In this document: positions 13,972 through 23,669 of the stretch, one piece after another
Position numbering within the stretch: the stretch's first letter is position 1
Layout: each line of letters starts with the position of its first letter
Assembly (NCBI GenBank): GCA_049693715.1
Contig: JBAVQC010000317.1
Coordinates: forward strand, 6,441 to 70,440
Direction: 5' to 3'
DNA length: 64,000 bases
Source of the DNA: Acidobacteriaceae bacterium
Lineage (GTDB): Bacteria; Acidobacteriota; Terriglobia; Terriglobales; Acidobacteriaceae
The notes under the pieces: model-generated
Seen by the model: the letters and a program-made list of their open reading frames with translations, nothing else
Databases searched by the model: none
What the model was told of the DNA's origin: nothing
Program-made: the position numbers and the translations under genes

Positions 13972-16125
13972 TCACGCGGCCGTTGCAACCGCGGAGTGCC
14001 GCTCGATTGTCAGCACGGTGATGTCGTCCTCCTGGCCAAATTTCCTGGCTGCTTCCACGATGTCGGCTGCGGGCTGGGTGGAGATGTCTCGGGCGCGATC
14101 GAAGCCGAAGAGTTCGCCTTGCTGATTTTGCGCTTCAATCACGCCGTCTGAGTAGAACGTCAGCCGGCTGCCGGGTGCAAGATAAAACTGGGTGGTTTCA
14201 TAGCGTGCGCCGCTCATTACGCCGAGAGGGAGCGCGCCGGGCAGTTCCACTTCTGTTCCGTCGAGGTACGGCGACAAATGGCCGGCGTTCGCGACAGTCA
14301 CCTCGCCATTGGCGCTGATGTGCGCGACCAGCGCGGTCGAGAAGCTTCCGCCGCCGCGGCCGACGAGGCGCTGGTTTAGGCTGGCCAGCAGTTCGGCGGG
14401 ACCGACTGTGTATTCAGCGACGCCGCGAATGGAGCCCACCAGCTCTGAGACCAGCATGGCCGCGGGCAATCCCTTGCCGGCCACGTCGCCAAGCACCACC
14501 AGCAAACCGCCTTCGCCTGCGGGCAGAATCTGAAAGAAGTCTCCGCCTACCTGCTGCGCGGGCTGATAGACCGACTCCACTTGAAACCCTGGTACATTCT
14601 CGACTTGTTCCGGCAACAGAACCTGCTGCACCTGCTGCGCGGCGGCGAGTTCACCTTCAAGAATGGCCTGGCGGCGGCTCATCTTGGTGGAGCGGAGAAG
14701 CATGATGAGGGCCAGCGCCAGCGTGGAGAGGATTGCCGACACGTTGTCGAGCGAGATGGAGAATGGGCCGGCGGGAAAGCGGTCGATGAGATTCAATCCG
14801 CGCAATGCCTGGCCGCGCAGGCCGCCAAATTGGAAGAGGATTTCAAATCCGATTTCAGCATAGATATAAACGCTGAACAGGACTGCAGGAATAAGCAGAA
14901 TGCCGGCCTCGCGATTGCCGCGACGCCAGTGGATGGCCAGGACGACCGGAATGACCACGGAGAGTAGGACGATAAAGGGAAGATTGCTGAGGAATTGCAC
15001 GGTCAGTGGCAAGACCAGGTAGAGGCCCTGAATGGCGCTGAAGGCGTTCATGATACCGGCGATGATGAGAATGGCGCGCCAACGCCAGCCGATCCGCTGC
15101 TGAACGAAGGAGAAATACAACGAGACCCAGAGAAACGGTGAGACCACGCGAAGTGTGTCCCCAAGAGCCTCCCAATAGAGTGGAAAATTGTGGAAAGCGG
15201 AAATGACAGGCTCTATGGATTCGACGAACGTGAAAACTCCCAGTGCGGCGATCCATAGATATTCAGTCTGCCGGCGCTGTGCGGCGAAGAGCACCAGCGC
15301 GACCAGTCCGAGACAGGCAAGGAGCAGATGATCGAGCCATCTACAGGAGTATTCGCCGATCACGTCAAGCCAGTCGAAGCGCTGGAGCGTGGCTTGCTGC
15401 CCGATGGTCAAATTGCCGGCGGAGTAGCCTGGACTTTGCCCGGTCCATTCGTTGGGAGATATATGCACGCGCAGTGCTACCACGATCGAGCCCGAGGCCA
15501 GCAGGCGGTCAGGAATCGACTCGATGACCTTCGCGTTCCAGGTGTATGGGATGTAGGGAGCGATCTGGCCTTCGGCGATCAGGCGCTCGCCATTGACGTA
15601 GACTTCAAAGGCGCGGGCGATATTTGCTTCGCGCAGCGCCAGGCCGGCCTGGCCGGGGCTGACCTTAACCCGTAGCCGGTACCAGACCACCTGGGGACGA
15701 TTGGTCTTGAAGACGGAGTTGATGTCTCCATGGGGGTCGAAGAGCGCCCATTGGGAGTCGTCGAAGCCGGGGCGGGCGTAGGCTGGGTCGTCCCCCGCGC
15801 GCATGAGCCAGGGGGAATCGAGGTCAGCGGGCTCGCGGAGCTTGGTCGCATCAAAGATCGCCTGGCTGGCTTGAGATGCGTTGCCCTGCGCGTGGCCATA
15901 TGGCCCGCACTTGATCAGGACCACGCAAGCGGCAATGACCACAAAGCGAGTGAGCGAAAAATGCCGGTGGAATTGGTGGGCGGATTCTCGGAGATTGGCA
16001 GAGTTTGGGAAAGAGCCAGGCAAGCGGCCTCCGTAAGACTCCGTTCCACCGTACCATTCCCACCGCCTGCATTCCAGAGCTTGCTTGCTGAGAAGTGTCT
16101 CGAAGTTTCGGGTCACGTAGCTCAA
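13972..16125 (-). CDS. 7TM-DISM receptor fused to SpoIIE/PP2C serine phosphatase
   Basis: 717 aa with a TTG start. It has an N-terminal periplasmic 7TMR-DISMED2-like domain and about seven hydrophobic helices (aa ~270-480). The C-terminal SpoIIE motifs are GGDFF, GDVAGKG, NAGH, YSDGV and EDDITV. Confidence 0.8.
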   Translation of the reverse strand: MSYVTRNFETLLSKQALECRRWEWYGGTESYGGRLPGSFPNSANLRESAHQFHRHFSLTRFVVIAACVVLIKCGPYGHAQGNASQASQAIFDATKLREPADLDSPWLMRAGDDPAYARPGFDDSQWALFDPHGDINSVFKTNRPQVVWYRLRVKVSPGQAGLALREANIARAFEVYVNGERLIAEGQIAPYIPYTWNAKVIESIPDRLLASGSIVVALRVHISPNEWTGQSPGYSAGNLTIGQQATLQRFDWLDVIGEYSCRWLDHLLLACLGLVALVLFAAQRRQTEYLWIAALGVFTFVESIEPVISAFHNFPLYWEALGDTLRVVSPFLWVSLYFSFVQQRIGWRWRAILIIAGIMNAFSAIQGLYLVLPLTVQFLSNLPFIVLLSVVIPVVLAIHWRRGNREAGILLIPAVLFSVYIYAEIGFEILFQFGGLRGQALRGLNLIDRFPAGPFSISLDNVSAILSTLALALIMLLRSTKMSRRQAILEGELAAAQQVQQVLLPEQVENVPGFQVESVYQPAQQVGGDFFQILPAGEGGLLVVLGDVAGKGLPAAMLVSELVGSIRGVAEYTVGPAELLASLNQRLVGRGGGSFSTALVAHISANGEVTVANAGHLSPYLDGTEVELPGALPLGVMSGARYETTQFYLAPGSRLTFYSDGVIEAQNQQGELFGFDRARDISTQPAADIVEAARKFGQEDDITVLTIERHSAVATAA

Positions 16126-16954
16126 CCCCCATCCGAATTTGAGGAGAAATCCGGTGCTAACGGAACACCCTCATGCATAGTCGCGCTGGTAATGACAAAC
16201 TCCTTACAATTGCATGACACAACCAACAACAGCATGTGGTGAACTGGTTTCACCGTCGCTAGGAAACCTGGGGACGGGCGGGACCTTTACGTAATAATTA
16301 CTGTTTCATTATGGGGGTGAACATCCCATCTGTCACTGCCTCCCCGCATATGGATGTCTGTCCACGCTGCCTCTGCATTGGTCCAAGCAAAAGATCGAGG
16401 ACAGTTCGAACGATAATTGTCTGCCCACTCGGAGAATCCCTTCCGCCAAGTCAATGGGAACCTCCGTCTGCCATGGACATTTACCCATCATGGATGTCCA
16501 CGAAATGACCCAAGACCTTGTAACTAATGCCGGTGAACCAAGTCTTATTGGCAGTAGTAAGAACCAAAGAGGGCATCTCGTGGACAAGGCACTTCGTGGA
16601 CAACCGGGACTACCGCCTTCGCGATTGCGTGAGGCCCTAAGTGCCAGTTTCGTCTCCCCAAAGACTCCCACAAACTCCTCCGTCCAATATCCTATGGCAC
16701 ACTCTTCCCAGTTTCCGCTCGGAGCTCTGGCTTCGACGCGAACTGTCTACTTGAAATTCACGACGAACGTATCGACTTCCACCTTTGACCCCAGGAGTAA
16801 CTTGATGTCCACCCCAGCACGTGTTCCTGAGCAAGTGTCTTCTTCAGCGCCAGACCGCCGGTCATTTCTCCGGAGGACGGCTTCTGACCCAAATGATTTT
16901 GTGAAGGGCACGTCGATTGCTGGATCCACTGCAGAAAGGATCCGGTGAACCGCG

Positions 16955-17266
16955 ATGCTTAGGATCACAGTTGTCGATTTGTCTGATAGCGTCGTAGTTC
17001 TTCGGGTAGAGGGCCGGATCACGGGTTGGTGGGTCGAGGAACTCCGCAGAACATGCGCTGCACATGCTTTCGCTGCGCATACTTTCGCTGCCCATACTTT
17101 CGCCGATGAGATTCAGTTATCCCTGGAGTTGTCGAGTGTTTCATTCGCCGATGCGGCTGGGATTGCGCTCCTCAAAGAACTGCGGAGTCGCGGGGCCGAT
17201 CTTATCCGCCCCACCCCATTCGTGGCCGAACAACTCAGGGATTGGCCATCATCCGGCGCAGCCTAA
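16955..17266 (+). CDS. STAS-domain protein (anti-sigma-factor-antagonist-like), atypical
   Basis: 103 aa with a STAS pattern (VVVLRVEGRITG.., ..LELSSVSFADAAGIALLKEL..). The canonical DSSG phospho-site reads DAAG. The gene contains an in-frame pentapeptide repeat. Confidence 0.65.
   Translation: MLRITVVDLSDSVVVLRVEGRITGWWVEELRRTCAAHAFAAHTFAAHTFADEIQLSLELSSVSFADAAGIALLKELRSRGADLIRPTPFVAEQLRDWPSSGAA
17057..17101 (+). repeat. In-frame 15-bp tandem repeat x3 inside the STAS gene
   Basis: The units are gctgcacatgctttc / gctgcgcatactttc / gctgcccatactttc, encoding AAHAF-AAHTF-AAHTF. Confidence 0.9.
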
Positions 17267-19137: not shown

Positions 19138-19406
19138 GCTCTCTTTTCGCAACAACTAGAGGCTTGGAGTGACGGCGGCTGCCAGTCCTGACGCTAAAAC
19201 CAGCGCCTGGGCATGGAGGCCTCTGCCAATTTCCGGGCTAATTGCACTACCGCAGGGCACCACCCCCCCAAAAACCCTGGATTTTGCATTGACCCCGCTT
19301 TTGGCACTACGTTATGAAGAAACCACCGGCCAGGACGCTGCAAAGTAAGGTGAACAAGCAATCTTTGCGTTCCACATTGAATACGTCATTTAAGGGGAAG
19401 AACAAC

Positions 19407-20030
19407 ATGGCTGCAAAACCGGAATTAGCACCGACCATCACTGCGCAGACGATCAAAGCAGCGCAGGAAGCACTTAACAACGCACCGTCCATGGGCGACG
19501 CGCCGGGAGTCGATAAAATCCGCGAGTTGCTTTTCGGTAATCAGATGCAGGACTACGACCGCCGTTTCTCGGTGATGGAAGAGCGTTTTCTACAAAAGGT
19601 GCGCGATCTGGAAGCAGAATCCTCCCGCGCCGTTCAGAGCGTGGAATCCTCGGTGAAGAAACAGCTGGAATCGCTAGCCAGCCAGATTCGCCAGGAACAG
19701 GATCTTCGCGCCGAGGCAGACAAGGAGTTGGGCCGCGGCCTTCGCGAACAGATCCAGGGATTGGAGAAGCATCTCAGCAAGGTTGCCGACCAACTCGCCA
19801 GCCAGGACCGGGACTTCACCGAGAGATTGGCCCACGAATCGCAAACCTTGCGCGAAGAGAGCCGGCGCCGGACCGACGACACTCGGGCTGCCATAGAGCG
19901 GATGCTTGCTGAGCTGATGAATGTCAAAACCGACCGTAGCCTGCTGGCCGGTCTATTCGTCGAAATTGCCCGATGCCTGAATCAGGACGTGACGGCGAAG
20001 TCGAATGGAGCCGGGGCCCAGCGATCCTGA
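19407..20030 (+). CDS. Coiled-coil protein (first gene of the GTPase module)
   Basis: ATG 19407 is preceded by AAGGGGA; an alternative upstream ATG lies at 19314. The 207-aa product is heptad-rich and charged (..QKVRDLEAESSRAVQSVESSVKKQLESLASQIRQEQDLRAEADKEL..). Confidence 0.6.
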   Translation: MAAKPELAPTITAQTIKAAQEALNNAPSMGDAPGVDKIRELLFGNQMQDYDRRFSVMEERFLQKVRDLEAESSRAVQSVESSVKKQLESLASQIRQEQDLRAEADKELGRGLREQIQGLEKHLSKVADQLASQDRDFTERLAHESQTLREESRRRTDDTRAAIERMLAELMNVKTDRSLLAGLFVEIARCLNQDVTAKSNGAGAQRS

Positions 20031-21948
20031 ACTGAATGGGCCGCACGACACCGGTTTTGAAAGGATTATAGCGATCGGAGACACCGTGATTTCCAGTGTT
20101 TCCCTGCTCGACAGGGACAGTTCGGATCCCCCGTTCTTACAGCCCGATGATGCCCGCTCCAAACGGCTCGCCGTGCTGCTGTTTGAGGTAGCGCGAAGCC
20201 TGGATCGCGATCTGGCGACGGCGCTCCCCAGGCTCGAAGGGGATCCGAAACTGGAGGCGCTGCGCAGCTTGATTCTCGAGCAGGATCGAGCCGCGATCGC
20301 AAAGCTGCAGCAGAAATTTGATGATCCGCGGCAGTTCGCTGAAGCCATCAGCTCCGTGCTGGCCGATGCCTTTGCCCTTGCCGGAGCGAGAGACGATCAA
20401 CTCGCAAAGGTGCTGGCGCCAATCCTGGAGCTGGCGACCCAGGCTTCGATCCGCAAAAATCCAGGCACCTTGGTGGGCATCCTCTACCCCCTCATGGGAT
20501 CGGTGGTCCGTAAATCCATCTCCGAGTCTCTGGACGGTACGCTGCAACGCATGAACCAGGCGTTCAAGCACAGCTTCTCATGGCAGGGATTGCGGTGGCG
20601 GCTGGAGGCGTTGCGCAGCGGAAGCAGCTTCGCCGACGTGGTGCTCAAACACACGGTGCAGTTCCGCGTCGAGCACGTCTTCTTAATTCATCGCAAGACC
20701 GGCCTTCTCATCGAGCACGTGGCGGCGCCGGAGGCGACGGCACAGGATCCTCAGTTGGTGTCCGGCATGCTGTCGGCCATCCAGGACTTCGTGCGCGACT
20801 CGTTCGAGGGAACCAATAAGAGCGGGGGAAGCGGCATCGATACCCTGCGGCTTGGCGACCTGCTGTTATGGTGCGAAGAGGGACCATTCGCGTTCCTGGC
20901 CGCCGTCATTCGGGGCAATCCGCCCGAATCGCTGCATGCGGTACTGCGCGAAACACTGACCAACATTCACGACCAATACCGGAGTTCGCTGGAAGAATTC
21001 CAAGGTGACTCCGCGACTCTGGGGGACTTGGCCACGCCACTGGCACTTGACCTGCAGCAACAGGAACGGCCGCGTGAAACGAAGTTGTCACCCTGGCTAT
21101 GGGGCATACCCCTGGTGTTGTTGCTTCTCGCCGGCGCCTGGGTGATACAGCGGACAATTGTCCGGCATCGTGTCGACGCGTATGTCGAGCGGCTGCGTGA
21201 GGAGCCAGGCATCGTGGTTGCCAGCTCCGAATTGCGCAACGGAAAATGGCAAATCTCCGGCTTGCGTGACCCCCTGGCCGCCGATCCCGCCGTAGTGCTC
21301 TCGCAGTCGGGTTTGGATCCTAAACGTGTCGCCGGTCACTGGGAGTCGTACCAGGCACTGAACCCGGCGATCGTTCTCCGGCGTCTTGCCGCCAGTCTGA
21401 ATCCTCCGCCCTCAGTCTCGTTGTCATTGAAGGGCGACACGGTAGAAGTCAGTGGCAGCGTTCCCCAGTACTGGACCGAGCGGGCCAGAGTGCTGGTCGC
21501 GGCGCTACCTGCGGGTTCTCCCAAAGTCGATTTCAGTGGACTCAAGGATATTCAGGATCCGGAATTTATTCGCCTGCGCGATGCTATCCAGGGGCATGTT
21601 ATTGCGTTCGATTCAAATGCAGACAGGCCTGCGCGGGGGCAGGACGCTACGCTGGATGTTGTTGCCGACGAGTTCCACCAACTGATGCGCGTGACCAGGC
21701 GTCTTGGCTTCACTGCCCGCATGATGATTTCCGGCCATGCGGATGCCATCGGCAACGAAACGGCGAACCTATCCCTAAGCGCGGCTCGAGCCGAGGTCGT
21801 CCGCTCCATGCTCAAAGCGCGGGGCATCGCTCCGGAACTGCTGGCCGTGCGCAGCGCCGGTCCACTCGAACCCATGTCGGCTCCCAACGGCAAACCAACC
21901 GCCGCGATGAATCGGAGAGCGACCTTCACCGTGATTGCCAGCGAGTGA
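20005..21948 (+). CDS. Single-pass membrane protein with a large cytoplasmic region (Roadblock/longin-like segment) and a periplasmic OmpA/MotB-type peptidoglycan-binding domain
   Basis: 647 aa. One TM helix at aa 362-381 (LSPWLWGIPLVLLLLAGAWVI). C-terminal OmpA-like motifs are ISGHADAIGNETANLSLSAARAEVVRSML..NRRATFTV. The start overlaps the upstream gene by 26 nt; an alternative GTG lies at 20086. Confidence 0.8.
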   Translation: MEPGPSDPELNGPHDTGFERIIAIGDTVISSVSLLDRDSSDPPFLQPDDARSKRLAVLLFEVARSLDRDLATALPRLEGDPKLEALRSLILEQDRAAIAKLQQKFDDPRQFAEAISSVLADAFALAGARDDQLAKVLAPILELATQASIRKNPGTLVGILYPLMGSVVRKSISESLDGTLQRMNQAFKHSFSWQGLRWRLEALRSGSSFADVVLKHTVQFRVEHVFLIHRKTGLLIEHVAAPEATAQDPQLVSGMLSAIQDFVRDSFEGTNKSGGSGIDTLRLGDLLLWCEEGPFAFLAAVIRGNPPESLHAVLRETLTNIHDQYRSSLEEFQGDSATLGDLATPLALDLQQQERPRETKLSPWLWGIPLVLLLLAGAWVIQRTIVRHRVDAYVERLREEPGIVVASSELRNGKWQISGLRDPLAADPAVVLSQSGLDPKRVAGHWESYQALNPAIVLRRLAASLNPPPSVSLSLKGDTVEVSGSVPQYWTERARVLVAALPAGSPKVDFSGLKDIQDPEFIRLRDAIQGHVIAFDSNADRPARGQDATLDVVADEFHQLMRVTRRLGFTARMMISGHADAIGNETANLSLSAARAEVVRSMLKARGIAPELLAVRSAGPLEPMSAPNGKPTAAMNRRATFTVIASE

Positions 21949-21955
21949 GATCTTA

Positions 21956-22450
21956 ATGCTTCAGAAGAAAGTTTGTCTGTTAGGGGGCTTCGGAGTCGGT
22001 AAGACCAGCCTGGTTCGGCGCTATGTTCAAAGCATCTTTTCGGACGCATACTTAACCACCGTCGGGGTCAAGATCGAGAAGAGGATGGTGAACGTCGGCG
22101 CCGCAGAGGTCGCTCTTATTCTCTGGGATATTGCGGGCGAGGACGACATAACTGGAATACGTATGAGCTATCTTCGGGGCGCTGCGGGATATCTCCTGGT
22201 CGTCGATGTTACGCGGGGGGAAACCCTCGAAGTCGCCAAGTCGATACAGGCTCGGGTAACTTCGGAAATAGGTTCGGTTCCGTTTCTGTTCCTTTTCAAC
22301 AAGTCGGATCTGAAGGAGAACTGGGACATCCCGGAACAGTCCGCCGAAGACTTGACGGAAGCGGGACACGTAGTTCTCCGGACCAGCGCCAAGACCGGCG
22401 AAGGCGTCGAAGAAGCATTTCAGGTACTAGCGAAGCGCATGGTGTCGTGA
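21956..22450 (+). CDS. Ras-superfamily (Rab-like) small GTPase
   Basis: 164 aa from ATG 21956, which puts the P-loop at the canonical position. Motifs: G1 GGFGVGKT, switch I YLTTVGV, G3 WDIAGED, G4 NKSD, G5 TSAK. There is no C-terminal Cys. Confidence 0.85.
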   Translation: MLQKKVCLLGGFGVGKTSLVRRYVQSIFSDAYLTTVGVKIEKRMVNVGAAEVALILWDIAGEDDITGIRMSYLRGAAGYLLVVDVTRGETLEVAKSIQARVTSEIGSVPFLFLFNKSDLKENWDIPEQSAEDLTEAGHVVLRTSAKTGEGVEEAFQVLAKRMVS

Positions 22451-22454
22451 CCAG

Positions 22455-23669
22455 ATGCTGAATATTTCGGACCGCATTTCAGAATGGCTCCTGCTCCTGG
22501 TTAAGTCCCAGCGTTCCATAGCCCATCTTCTCATCGACAAGGAAATGATCCTGATCAAGGCAGGCGGAGATCTGGGGTACTACGGACTGGCTGATCTAAA
22601 GCACCTGCATTCCGCCTCCGATCAATTGCCATTCCTGGAAGGTCTGCTGCCCTTGGCGGAAACACCTTTTGTTTTACAGTCCGTGGGCATGCCTGGCGGA
22701 AGTGTGGCGGACGTTCATCTTTTTGCCGAAGAAGATATGACGTGGGTCGTGCTCCTCGACGTGACCGCGGAACATGACCATACCAGGAAAGTTCAGCAGA
22801 AGGCGTACGACATGACGCTGTTGAGCCAGCGCGAGGCACGCCTCATTGCAAAGCTCGAGGCCGCGCACAAGGAGCTGACGGCGGCTCACCGCGACCTGGC
22901 CGAATCCCGTGATGAGCTTCTACGGACCCACAACCGGCTGCGGCAGGAATTGCACGATGCCGAGCGCTATGTTCTTGCCATCTTGCCGGAGCCCGTCGCG
23001 GAGCCGGTCGCAGTTGACTGGCTCTTCGTTCCTTCCACGGAGCTTGGAGGAGATTCCTTCGGTTATCACTGGATCGATGCTGAGCACTTTGCCCTTTACC
23101 TGCTCGACGTCTGCGGACACGGTGTCGGTTCGGCGTTGCTGTCGATCACGGCGGCGAATGCGCTCCGGTCCGGCGCCTTGCAGAACACCGATTTCCGTAT
23201 GCCTGAAGCAGTGCTGGACTCGTTGAATCGGGCTTTCCAGATGGAAAATCAAAACGGTCTCTATTTCACCATGTGGTACGGCGTCTACCATCGGCCTACA
23301 GGAAGGCTGCGCTATGCAAGCGCCGGGCATCCACCACCCATTCTGGTGAGCGGCCGAGGAGAACAGCGCGGCGAAGCGAAGGCGCTGCCGGGCTTTGGTT
23401 GTCCTGTGGGTATTTTGCCCGACGCCGAGTACGAGAGCCAGGAGTGTACTCTGGCGGGCCCTGCGCGCCTGTTCCTCTTCAGCGACGGCGTTTACGAAAT
23501 CATGCGGCCGGACGGGGAGATGCTGGAATTCGAAGCTTTCGAAGAAGTCCTCACCCGCGCAGTTCCGGAAGGCGCAAGGGAAGTGGAAGAACTCCTCCGT
23601 TTCGTTCGAGACTTCGGCGGCTCGGAAGAACTGGATGATGATTTTTCAATCGTCAAGATGACCATCTAG
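22455..23669 (+). CDS. SpoIIE/PP2C-type serine phosphatase with unassigned N-terminal domain and coiled-coil linker
   Basis: 404 aa. SpoIIE motifs are LGGDSFGY, LLDVCGHGVGSALL, SAGHPPP, FSDGVYE and DDDFSIV. The start lies 4 nt after the GTPase stop codon. Confidence 0.85.
   Translation: MLNISDRISEWLLLLVKSQRSIAHLLIDKEMILIKAGGDLGYYGLADLKHLHSASDQLPFLEGLLPLAETPFVLQSVGMPGGSVADVHLFAEEDMTWVVLLDVTAEHDHTRKVQQKAYDMTLLSQREARLIAKLEAAHKELTAAHRDLAESRDELLRTHNRLRQELHDAERYVLAILPEPVAEPVAVDWLFVPSTELGGDSFGYHWIDAEHFALYLLDVCGHGVGSALLSITAANALRSGALQNTDFRMPEAVLDSLNRAFQMENQNGLYFTMWYGVYHRPTGRLRYASAGHPPPILVSGRGEQRGEAKALPGFGCPVGILPDAEYESQECTLAGPARLFLFSDGVYEIMRPDGEMLEFEAFEEVLTRAVPEGAREVEELLRFVRDFGGSEELDDDFSIVKMTI

Follow-up and report, generated by a model that had tools for sequence, protein, structure and literature searches.

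A predicted Roadblock-type fold in the OmpA-anchored membrane protein of a bacterial Rup GTPase module

No regulator is known for the Rup branch of bacterial Ras-like GTPases, which was defined in 2014, and the locus described here raises the question of whether a candidate is encoded directly beside the GTPase gene. The window, a stretch of 64,000 nucleotides from an Acidobacteriaceae bacterium (contig JBAVQC010000317.1), contains four tightly spaced genes that run in the same direction on the plus strand: gene 1 (19314..20030) for a coiled-coil cytoplasmic protein, gene 2 (20005..21948) for a bitopic membrane protein, gene 3 (21935..22450) for a Ras/Rab-like small GTPase of the Group 1 Rup type, and gene 4 (22455..23669) for an output protein, here a PP2C/SpoIIE phosphatase. 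This four-gene module is exactly the Group 1 Rup neighbourhood that was defined by genome comparison (Wuichet and Sogaard-Andersen 2014, Genome Biol Evol; PMC4316618). In that work, a conservon-like signalling complex was proposed for the neighbourhood, diguanylate cyclase/phosphodiesterase or histidine kinase was given as its typical output, and the domain studied here was left as of 'unknown function' with no fold assigned. The literature searched after the 2014 paper yielded neither a fold name for this domain nor an experimental test of the system. The domain belongs to the gene 2 protein, which comprises an N-terminal helical region, the Roadblock-like domain, one transmembrane helix, a periplasmic linker and an OmpA-like domain. 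What is new here, inside a module known solely from comparative genomics, is the fold assignment: structure prediction and fold comparison support the view that the cytoplasmic domain, residues about 196–330, adopts a Roadblock-type fold of the order α-ββ-α-βββ-α.

The fold was predicted with AlphaFold2 for residues 195–350 (counted from ATG 20005; a start at GTG 20086 would lower all residue numbers by 27). The underlying alignment, A2, consists of the domain from the window and 55 orthologous stretches (56 sequences); it was built from genome loci only and is hence shallow, with 52–94% identity to the query and an effective number of sequences (Neff, hhalign) of 2.2. The resulting model has a mean predicted local distance difference test (pLDDT) score of 69, with the five models ranging from 60 to 69, and a predicted template modelling (pTM) score of 0.61, and its strands and main helices sit in blocks of mean pLDDT about 70–82. 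DSSP on the model gives the order H2-11, H15-23, E26-35, E41-46, H55-75, E85-89, E92-98, E102-110 and H115-136 in model numbering. Specifically, two helices spanning 20590..20655, namely α0 (residues 196–205, nt 20590–20619), which carries the motif W-R-x-E-x-x-R-x-G, and α1 (209–217, nt 20629–20655), the N-terminal helix of the Roadblock order, precede the core of the domain at 20662..20994. The core is formed by strands β1 (220–229, nt 20662–20691) and β2 (235–240, nt 20707–20724), helix α2 (249–269, nt 20749–20811) with the motif S-x-M-L-x-A-I-Q-D-F-x-x-D-S-F, strands β3 (279–283, nt 20839–20853), β4 (286–292, nt 20860–20880) and β5 (296–304, nt 20890–20916), and the C-terminal helix α3 (309–330, nt 20929–20994), all on the plus strand. 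Levine et al. (2013; PMC3747258) describe the Roadblock order as α-ββ-α-βββ-α and the longin domain as its circular permutation, ββ-α-βββ-αα. Because helix α1 lies directly before β1, the order in the model is the Roadblock order of these authors, and the model thus shows, at moderate confidence, the α-ββ-α-βββ(-α) arrangement of Roadblock/LC7 domains. With regard to the longin order the picture is mixed: the helix at residues 209–217 precedes β1 and a single long helix closes the domain, as in the Roadblock order, yet the best template modelling (TM) scores are to longin domains, those of Sec22b and Ykt6.

A preliminary description of this DNA, made by eye, had seen a strand-strand/helix/strand-strand/helix pattern of the Roadblock or longin kind at residues ~220–325. 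Its coordinates hold (in the open reading frame 20005–21948, codon 220 starts at nt 20662 and codon 325 ends at nt 20979), and the pattern agrees with DSSP on the model except that three strands, not two, follow the central helix. The pattern is no product of chance, and the predicted fold unit begins one helix earlier than described, with α1 (residues 209–217), itself preceded by the helix at residues 196–205.

When the model was compared with the Protein Data Bank (PDB) by Foldseek, 18 matches were obtained at E ≤ 1e-3, and all 50 of the 50 matches listed are Roadblock or longin domains. These include the C-terminal domains of Rag/Gtr (Gtr, 8fw5_D, E 8e-5), MglB both free and bound to MglA (3t12, 3t1s, 1j3w; 2.3e-4 for 3t12_C, and 2e-4 to 2e-3 over the MglB entries), the Sec22b longin domain (1ifq_A, TM 0.62/0.74, root mean square deviation 3.1 Å), the Ykt6 longin domain (TM 0.56/0.63) and Mon1-Ccz1 with Ypt7 (5ldd_E, TM 0.53/0.50). 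Additionally, MglC (7ct3), Asgard Roadblock2 (9jq8), LAMTOR subunits, COPZ1, AP sigma subunits, TRAPP subunits, Ego3 and dynein LC7 were matched. The best structural superpositions are thus with eukaryotic longin/Roadblock platforms (Sec22b, Ykt6, Mon1-Ccz1). A fold search against a viral library, in which four of the five best-ranked matches with a probability of at least 0.98 are giant-virus synaptobrevin/longin proteins, adds minor support. The Roadblock/longin likeness suspected by eye is therefore borne out by structure prediction and fold search, and AlphaFold2 with Foldseek did not lead to a different fold.

Could the resemblance be a modelling artefact? The alignment is shallow and its members closely related, with a Neff of about 2, and none of the five models exceeds a pLDDT of 69. 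On the other hand, the model reproduces the secondary-structure order that was read independently by eye from the sequence, its strands and main helices belong to the better-scoring blocks, and a random or wrong fold would not yield matches to a single superfamily throughout the list. We therefore consider it quite improbable that the predicted fold is wrong.

The β-β-α-β-β-β-α pattern by itself is common to several α/β sandwich sensor folds, and no sequence family membership ties the domain to MglB, so a second explanation has to be weighed here: a PAS-, GAF- or profilin-like α/β domain that senses a small molecule or another signal in the cytoplasm and is not directly related to the GTPase. 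The N-terminal 140 residues of the gene 4 phosphatase served as a control. They form a small α/β domain with a secondary-structure string similar to that of the Roadblock-like domain and were modelled in the same way (alignment A3, 45 sequences, pLDDT 90.3). For this control, Foldseek listed phytochrome and histidine-kinase PAS domains; a single dynein LC7 chain appeared, and only at rank 46. The procedure thus separates PAS-like from Roadblock-like sandwiches, and for the gene 2 domain PAS or GAF domains account for 0 of the 50 listed PDB matches, which makes the sensor explanation very improbable. A further candidate, in which the products of genes 2 and 4 contribute the two Roadblock halves of a heterodimeric platform, was rejected because the N-terminal domain of gene 4 is PAS-like.

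On which side of the membrane does the domain lie? In a Kyte-Doolittle scan of the gene 2 protein, no N-terminal signal peptide was seen, and the only stretch above 1.6 is the transmembrane helix at residues 362–381 (nt 21088..21147, plus strand), which confirms the single hydrophobic segment already noted at this position. The charges flanking the helix are uninformative (3 versus 4 Lys/Arg). The C-terminal OmpA-like peptidoglycan-binding domain (21604..21927, plus strand) of the earlier account is also confirmed: the Pfam OmpA family (PF00691) matches residues 572–636 (2.9e-9, 37.6 bits versus a cut-off of 27.2), NCBIfam models of the YiaD/Pal/YfiB type match from residues 530–534 to residue 641, and phmmer of the whole protein against PDB sequences returns OmpA-like chains only. 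Moreover, the peptidoglycan-binding motif NLSLSAARAEVV at residues 588–599 is an intact N-x2-L-S-x2-R-A-x2-V. Because the OmpA domain must reach the peptidoglycan, the N-terminus of 360 residues is hydrophilic with no signal peptide seen, and there is one helix, residues 1–361 are expected to be cytoplasmic, and this N-in/C-out arrangement is the only reasonable reading of the topology from the sequence. The Roadblock-like domain would accordingly sit at the cytoplasmic side of the inner membrane, in line with the preliminary description.

The same description had called the topology MotB-like. As far as the layout is concerned this holds, since the gene 2 protein shares with MotB/Pal anchors the N-in orientation, the single transmembrane helix and the periplasmic OmpA-like domain with its canonical motif. 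The comparison fails at the helix, which contains no D or E within residues 362–381 and hence lacks the conserved Asp of MotB, and at the partner, since the other three genes of the module have no Pfam match of the MotA/ExbB/TolQ type; nor does the 360-residue cytoplasmic part of gene 2 have a counterpart in MotB. A MotB-like stator was therefore rejected. A defence-system reading was dropped as well, because PADLOC on the four proteins gave only weak similarity to the ZorA-tail coiled coil and to the OmpA part of ZorB. As to the periplasmic linker (residues 382–530), two BON-like strand motifs are discernible by eye, with no Pfam match; in Mesorhizobium loci (e.g. L017, L024 and L027) the linkers between the transmembrane helix and OmpA are longer by several hundred residues, and the long forms P0148 and P0185 give BON-domain matches.

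The domain defines a very large family. HMMER searches with residues 195–350 against 1.84 billion representative proteins retrieved 3851 clusters (50% identity) at E ≤ 1e-3 and 631 at E ≤ 1e-30, and 7 of the 10 longer family members scanned likewise end in OmpA. One member, the acidic 2171-residue protein P0139, has the domain in triplicate, with a CARDB-like segment before each copy, and a DUF5915-like end; an OmpA domain was not detected in it. The protein seems to be archaeal, in which case the domain would not be confined to the bacterial OmpA setting. Close homologues of the gene 2 protein are named 'OmpA family protein' in public sources and usually have 620 residues. Since a family of this size is absent from Pfam and NCBIfam and goes under that name, thousands of genomes may carry an unrecognised GTPase-partner domain.

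Conservation was compared in A2 and in A1, a more diverse alignment of the domain. The domain is the best conserved part of the gene 2 protein, with 52–94% identity versus 28–93% in the flanking parts (55 loci from several phyla). The motifs that recur in the family are W-R-x-E-x-x-R-x-G, V-E-x-V-F-L-I-H, D-x4-S-x-M-L-x-A-I-Q-D-F-x-x-D-S-F, W-x-E-x-G-P-x-A, V-I-R-G-x-x-P and F-x-G-D, as judged from the consensus (at least 50%) of a 146-sequence alignment together with the consensus and the at least 90% conserved columns of A1 and A2. W198, R199 and R204 are conserved to at least 90% in both A1 and A2, and E201 and G206 in A2 only. Helix α2 is the most conserved element, with 8 of 21 positions at or above 90% in A1 and 12 of 21 in A2; S253, Q260, D261, D265 and S266 of this helix reach that level in A2, and S253, D265 and S266 also in A1. 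Helix α3 and strand β3 vary across the alignments.

Is the domain tied to the GTPase beyond this locus? In a scan of 185,579 species genomes, at least 592 relatives were confirmed, of which the best 80 were taken as loci; they span Acidobacteriota, Alpha-, Beta- and Gammaproteobacteria, Myxococcaceae, Nitrospiraceae and Eisenbacteria. By tblastn with the proteins of the window, the coiled-coil gene lies directly upstream of the membrane-protein gene in all 80. Of the 75 loci whose sequence extends sufficiently downstream, 74 keep the order coiled-coil gene, gene 2, GTPase gene and output gene. In the distant loci L065–L080, the domain (about 52–57% identity) and the GTPase (49–57%) are conserved to about the same degree, versus 28–40% for the other parts of the module. 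This genome has one copy of the module, whose distribution in the phylum is patchy: of 61 Acidobacteriota genomes searched, 4 contain it, counting this one. Additionally, the domain of the window shares 69–71% identity with those of Variovorax and Rhodanobacteraceae versus 52–57% with most other Acidobacteriota among the loci. Being closer to proteobacterial than to most acidobacterial copies, its sequence suggests horizontal spread of the module. A Pfam Robl_LC7/MglB gene, which is present in 49 of the 61 Acidobacteriota genomes searched, was not found in this one (96.6% complete).

The GTPase (171 residues; Pfam Ras, 2.6e-32) differs from Ras at two positions. Its G1 motif, GGFGVGKT (window 21983–22006, plus strand), has Phe at the position of Ras Gly12, and its G3 motif, WDIAGED (22124–22144, plus strand), has Glu at that of Gln61; the NKSD and SAK motifs are retained. 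Among 72 GTPases (the sequence from the window and 71 orthologues from the loci), Phe occupies the Gly12 position in 68 and Glu the Gln61 position in 66, and Gln is found there in none. By analogy with Ras Gly12 substitutions, a bulky residue at this position may obstruct the classical arginine finger, and Phe here may point to an unusual hydrolysis mechanism of the Rup GTPase. Because none of the 72 GTPases has the Gln and the genome lacks a Robl_LC7/MglB gene, a different regulator is needed.

The product of gene 4 (404 residues) begins with a PAS-like domain (residues 1–103, plus strand; matched to PAS domains by Foldseek), which lies within the stretch modelled as a control above (residues 1–140, nt 22455–22874). 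From residue 104 a long helix follows, which bears Gln115 (nt 22797–22799) outside the PAS core, and the PP2C/SpoIIE domain occupies residues 209–402 (Pfam SpoIIE, 1.3e-43). Gln115 is invariant in the 45 N-domain sequences of gene 4. The locus thus presents the features on which the Group 1 Rup neighbourhood was defined: a GTPase without catalytic Gln in G3 adjoins gene 2; in gene 2 the unknown domain is followed by a transmembrane helix and then an OmpA domain, with the coiled-coil gene alongside; and the fourth gene encodes an output protein with an invariant Gln in its N-terminal region. Among the loci, the catalytic part of the gene after the GTPase is swapped (L011, L017, L021, L070, L072, L074, L076 and L077), so that PP2C phosphatase, class III adenylate/guanylate cyclase, hybrid histidine kinase with REC and Hpt, sigma-54 activator (AAA+) and PAS modules are found, while the PAS-like N-domain with Gln115 stays. 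This output range is wider than the diguanylate cyclase/phosphodiesterase or kinase outputs named in PMC4316618, from which the loci differ in their PP2C, class III cyclase, sigma-54 activator and PAS modules.

We consider it fairly likely that the Roadblock-like domain is a membrane-fixed docking or regulatory platform of the adjacent Rup GTPase, a role made plausible by fold analogy and gene linkage. The periplasmic OmpA-like end would fix the inner-membrane gene 2 protein to peptidoglycan, and the domain, probably as a side-by-side dimer, would form the platform. Known Roadblock/longin domains pair side by side through β3 and a single 'top' helix, the GTPase sits on the top face, and the domains are platforms to which other parts often contribute the catalytic elements (PMC3747258). 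By analogy, α2 would correspond to this single top-face helix, the GTPase-binding face of known platforms, and its conserved polar residues are likely exposed. The conserved α2 face may then dock the Group 1 Rup GTPase and control its nucleotide state or location, whether as guanine-nucleotide exchange factor (GEF), as GTPase-activating protein (GAP) or as plain anchor. Lacking a catalytic Gln of its own, the GTPase would next engage the PAS-like N-domain of the gene 4 product, whose invariant Gln115 may complete the GTPase active site and time the output enzyme, here a PP2C phosphatase.

Several results weigh against the fold assignment or the platform role. The confidence of the model is moderate, with no residue at a pLDDT of 90 or above, the Foldseek E-values are modest (8e-5 to 3e-3), and β3, the usual dimer edge, is poorly conserved, which fits equally with and without an edge-strand dimer. 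At the sequence level, Pfam (E ≤ 1) and NCBIfam gave no match over the Roadblock-like region of the gene 2 protein, a Pfam scan of 33 diverse domain members at E ≤ 10 gave no Robl_LC7 and nothing significant (one of the 33 gave a weak, non-significant match to Fuz_longin_1, E = 0.13), and PDB sequences searched with a profile of the domain returned nothing. Likewise, when A1 and A2 were aligned by hhalign with 30 acidobacterial MglB sequences, the probability stayed below 1%, with E-values of 0.15–0.25; the forced alignment is colinear and places V-F-L-I-H-R-x-T-G-L over v-F-L-V-D-K-N-G-Q of MglB. Because the hhalign result is non-significant, homology to MglB cannot be claimed from sequence, and since no sequence kinship is detected and the predicted fold is similar, the domain is best described as a separate family with a Roadblock-type fold and not as a member of Pfam Robl_LC7. 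As for the gene order, one locus, L080 (an Acidobacteriota metagenome-assembled genome, 1744–4685), has no GTPase gene between genes 2 and 4; the contig breaks off shortly downstream, and the GTPase gene may be located elsewhere. Finally, gene linkage fits an indirect functional relation equally well.

A rival reading is that the Roadblock/longin-fold domain only dimerises or scaffolds, for instance by coupling to the coiled-coil protein, and the GTPase is regulated solely by the PAS-like domain of gene 4. Dynein LC7, AP sigma and COPZ, which are among the matches, are plain dimerisation or adaptor modules, the coiled-coil gene is linked as tightly as the GTPase gene, and the invariant Gln able to complete the GTPase site sits in gene 4 (PMC4316618). 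However, the exposed polar residues of α2 (S253, Q260, D261, D265 and S266) are conserved beyond what a dimer edge requires, and the domain and the GTPase are about equally conserved in the distant loci; in known systems, moreover, Roadblock/longin dimers beside GTPases bind them (PMC3747258). We thus regard a purely scaffolding domain as unlikely and propose that the platform contacts the GTPase directly.

How does such a platform compare with known systems? It resembles MglB, the GAP of MglA (3T12, 1J3W, 6IZW), in the predicted order α-ββ-α-βββ-α including the C-terminal helix and in a gene beside that of a Ras-like GTPase. Unlike MglB, which is a small soluble protein, the domain is part of a 620–647-residue peptidoglycan-anchored membrane protein, and it has no detectable sequence kinship with MglB. 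MglA has its own Arg and Gln, which are repositioned by MglB (PMC6785124). For a Rup GTPase in which Glu replaces this Gln and Phe stands where Ras has Gly12, a GAP mechanism of the MglB type therefore cannot simply be assumed. Actinobacterial conservons (CvnA-D/Mfp), which were proposed as G-protein-coupled-like signalling systems (PMC4316618), are likewise operons that bring a Ras-like GTPase together with a Roadblock protein and a membrane sensor; in contrast to the module described here, their CvnB/MfpD is a separate soluble member of Pfam Robl_LC7, their membrane component is histidine-kinase-like and their GTPase is of the MglA family, not Rup. With the eukaryotic platforms (Sec22b, Ykt6, Mon1-Ccz1, TRAPP, Ragulator/LAMTOR and Rag), the module would have in common that a platform serving a Rab-like GTPase is tethered to a membrane. 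Ragulator owes its lipid anchor to p18, and no longin domains were known in prokaryotes to Levine et al. (PMC3747258); the gene 2 protein, by contrast, is attached by an integral transmembrane helix and a cell-wall anchor, in a bacterium, and its domain starts with a helix before β1, unlike the longin order ββ-α-βββ-αα.

A Roadblock-type fold for a conserved 'unknown' domain would thus give the Rup branch a candidate regulator and a face to mutate, helix α2. It would also extend the rule that Roadblock/longin dimers serve as GTPase platforms to an integral, cell-wall-anchored bacterial membrane protein, and bears on the origin of such platforms before eukaryotes. A bolder version, which we offer as a tentative possibility, sees in the module a bacterial transmembrane G-protein pathway: the state of the envelope would be read by the periplasmic BON-like and OmpA part and relayed through the helix to a dimeric Roadblock exchange factor, and the GTP-bound Rab-like GTPase would switch on an interchangeable output via a PAS-like domain that supplies Gln in trans, so that the effector is at once GAP and timer. 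If true, this pathway would be a prokaryotic counterpart of the membrane-tethered Ragulator or Mon1-Ccz1 platform, built on a Roadblock family unseen by sequence methods.

As regards the remaining features of the locus, the start of gene 2 is ambiguous. With ATG 20005, whose ribosome-binding site is weak, the protein would have 647 residues and the gene would share 26 nt with the coiled-coil gene; GTG 20086, with GGAG 5–9 nt upstream, gives 620 residues, fits the length called for most homologues and is the probable start. Gene 1 encodes 238 residues as a listed open reading frame, with a later ATG at 19407 as a possible alternative; its product, which gives weak matches of the coiled-coil type in Pfam and NCBIfam, is the counterpart of what PMC4316618 calls the 'coiled-coil cytoplasmic protein' in the Group 1 Rup neighbourhood. 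A few kilobases upstream of the module, the region 13972–17266 of the window encodes a 717-residue multi-pass membrane SpoIIE-type phosphatase on the minus strand and, at 16955–17266, a small STAS-like protein. Conceivably, the PP2C phosphatase of the GTPase module signals into a partner-switching cascade.

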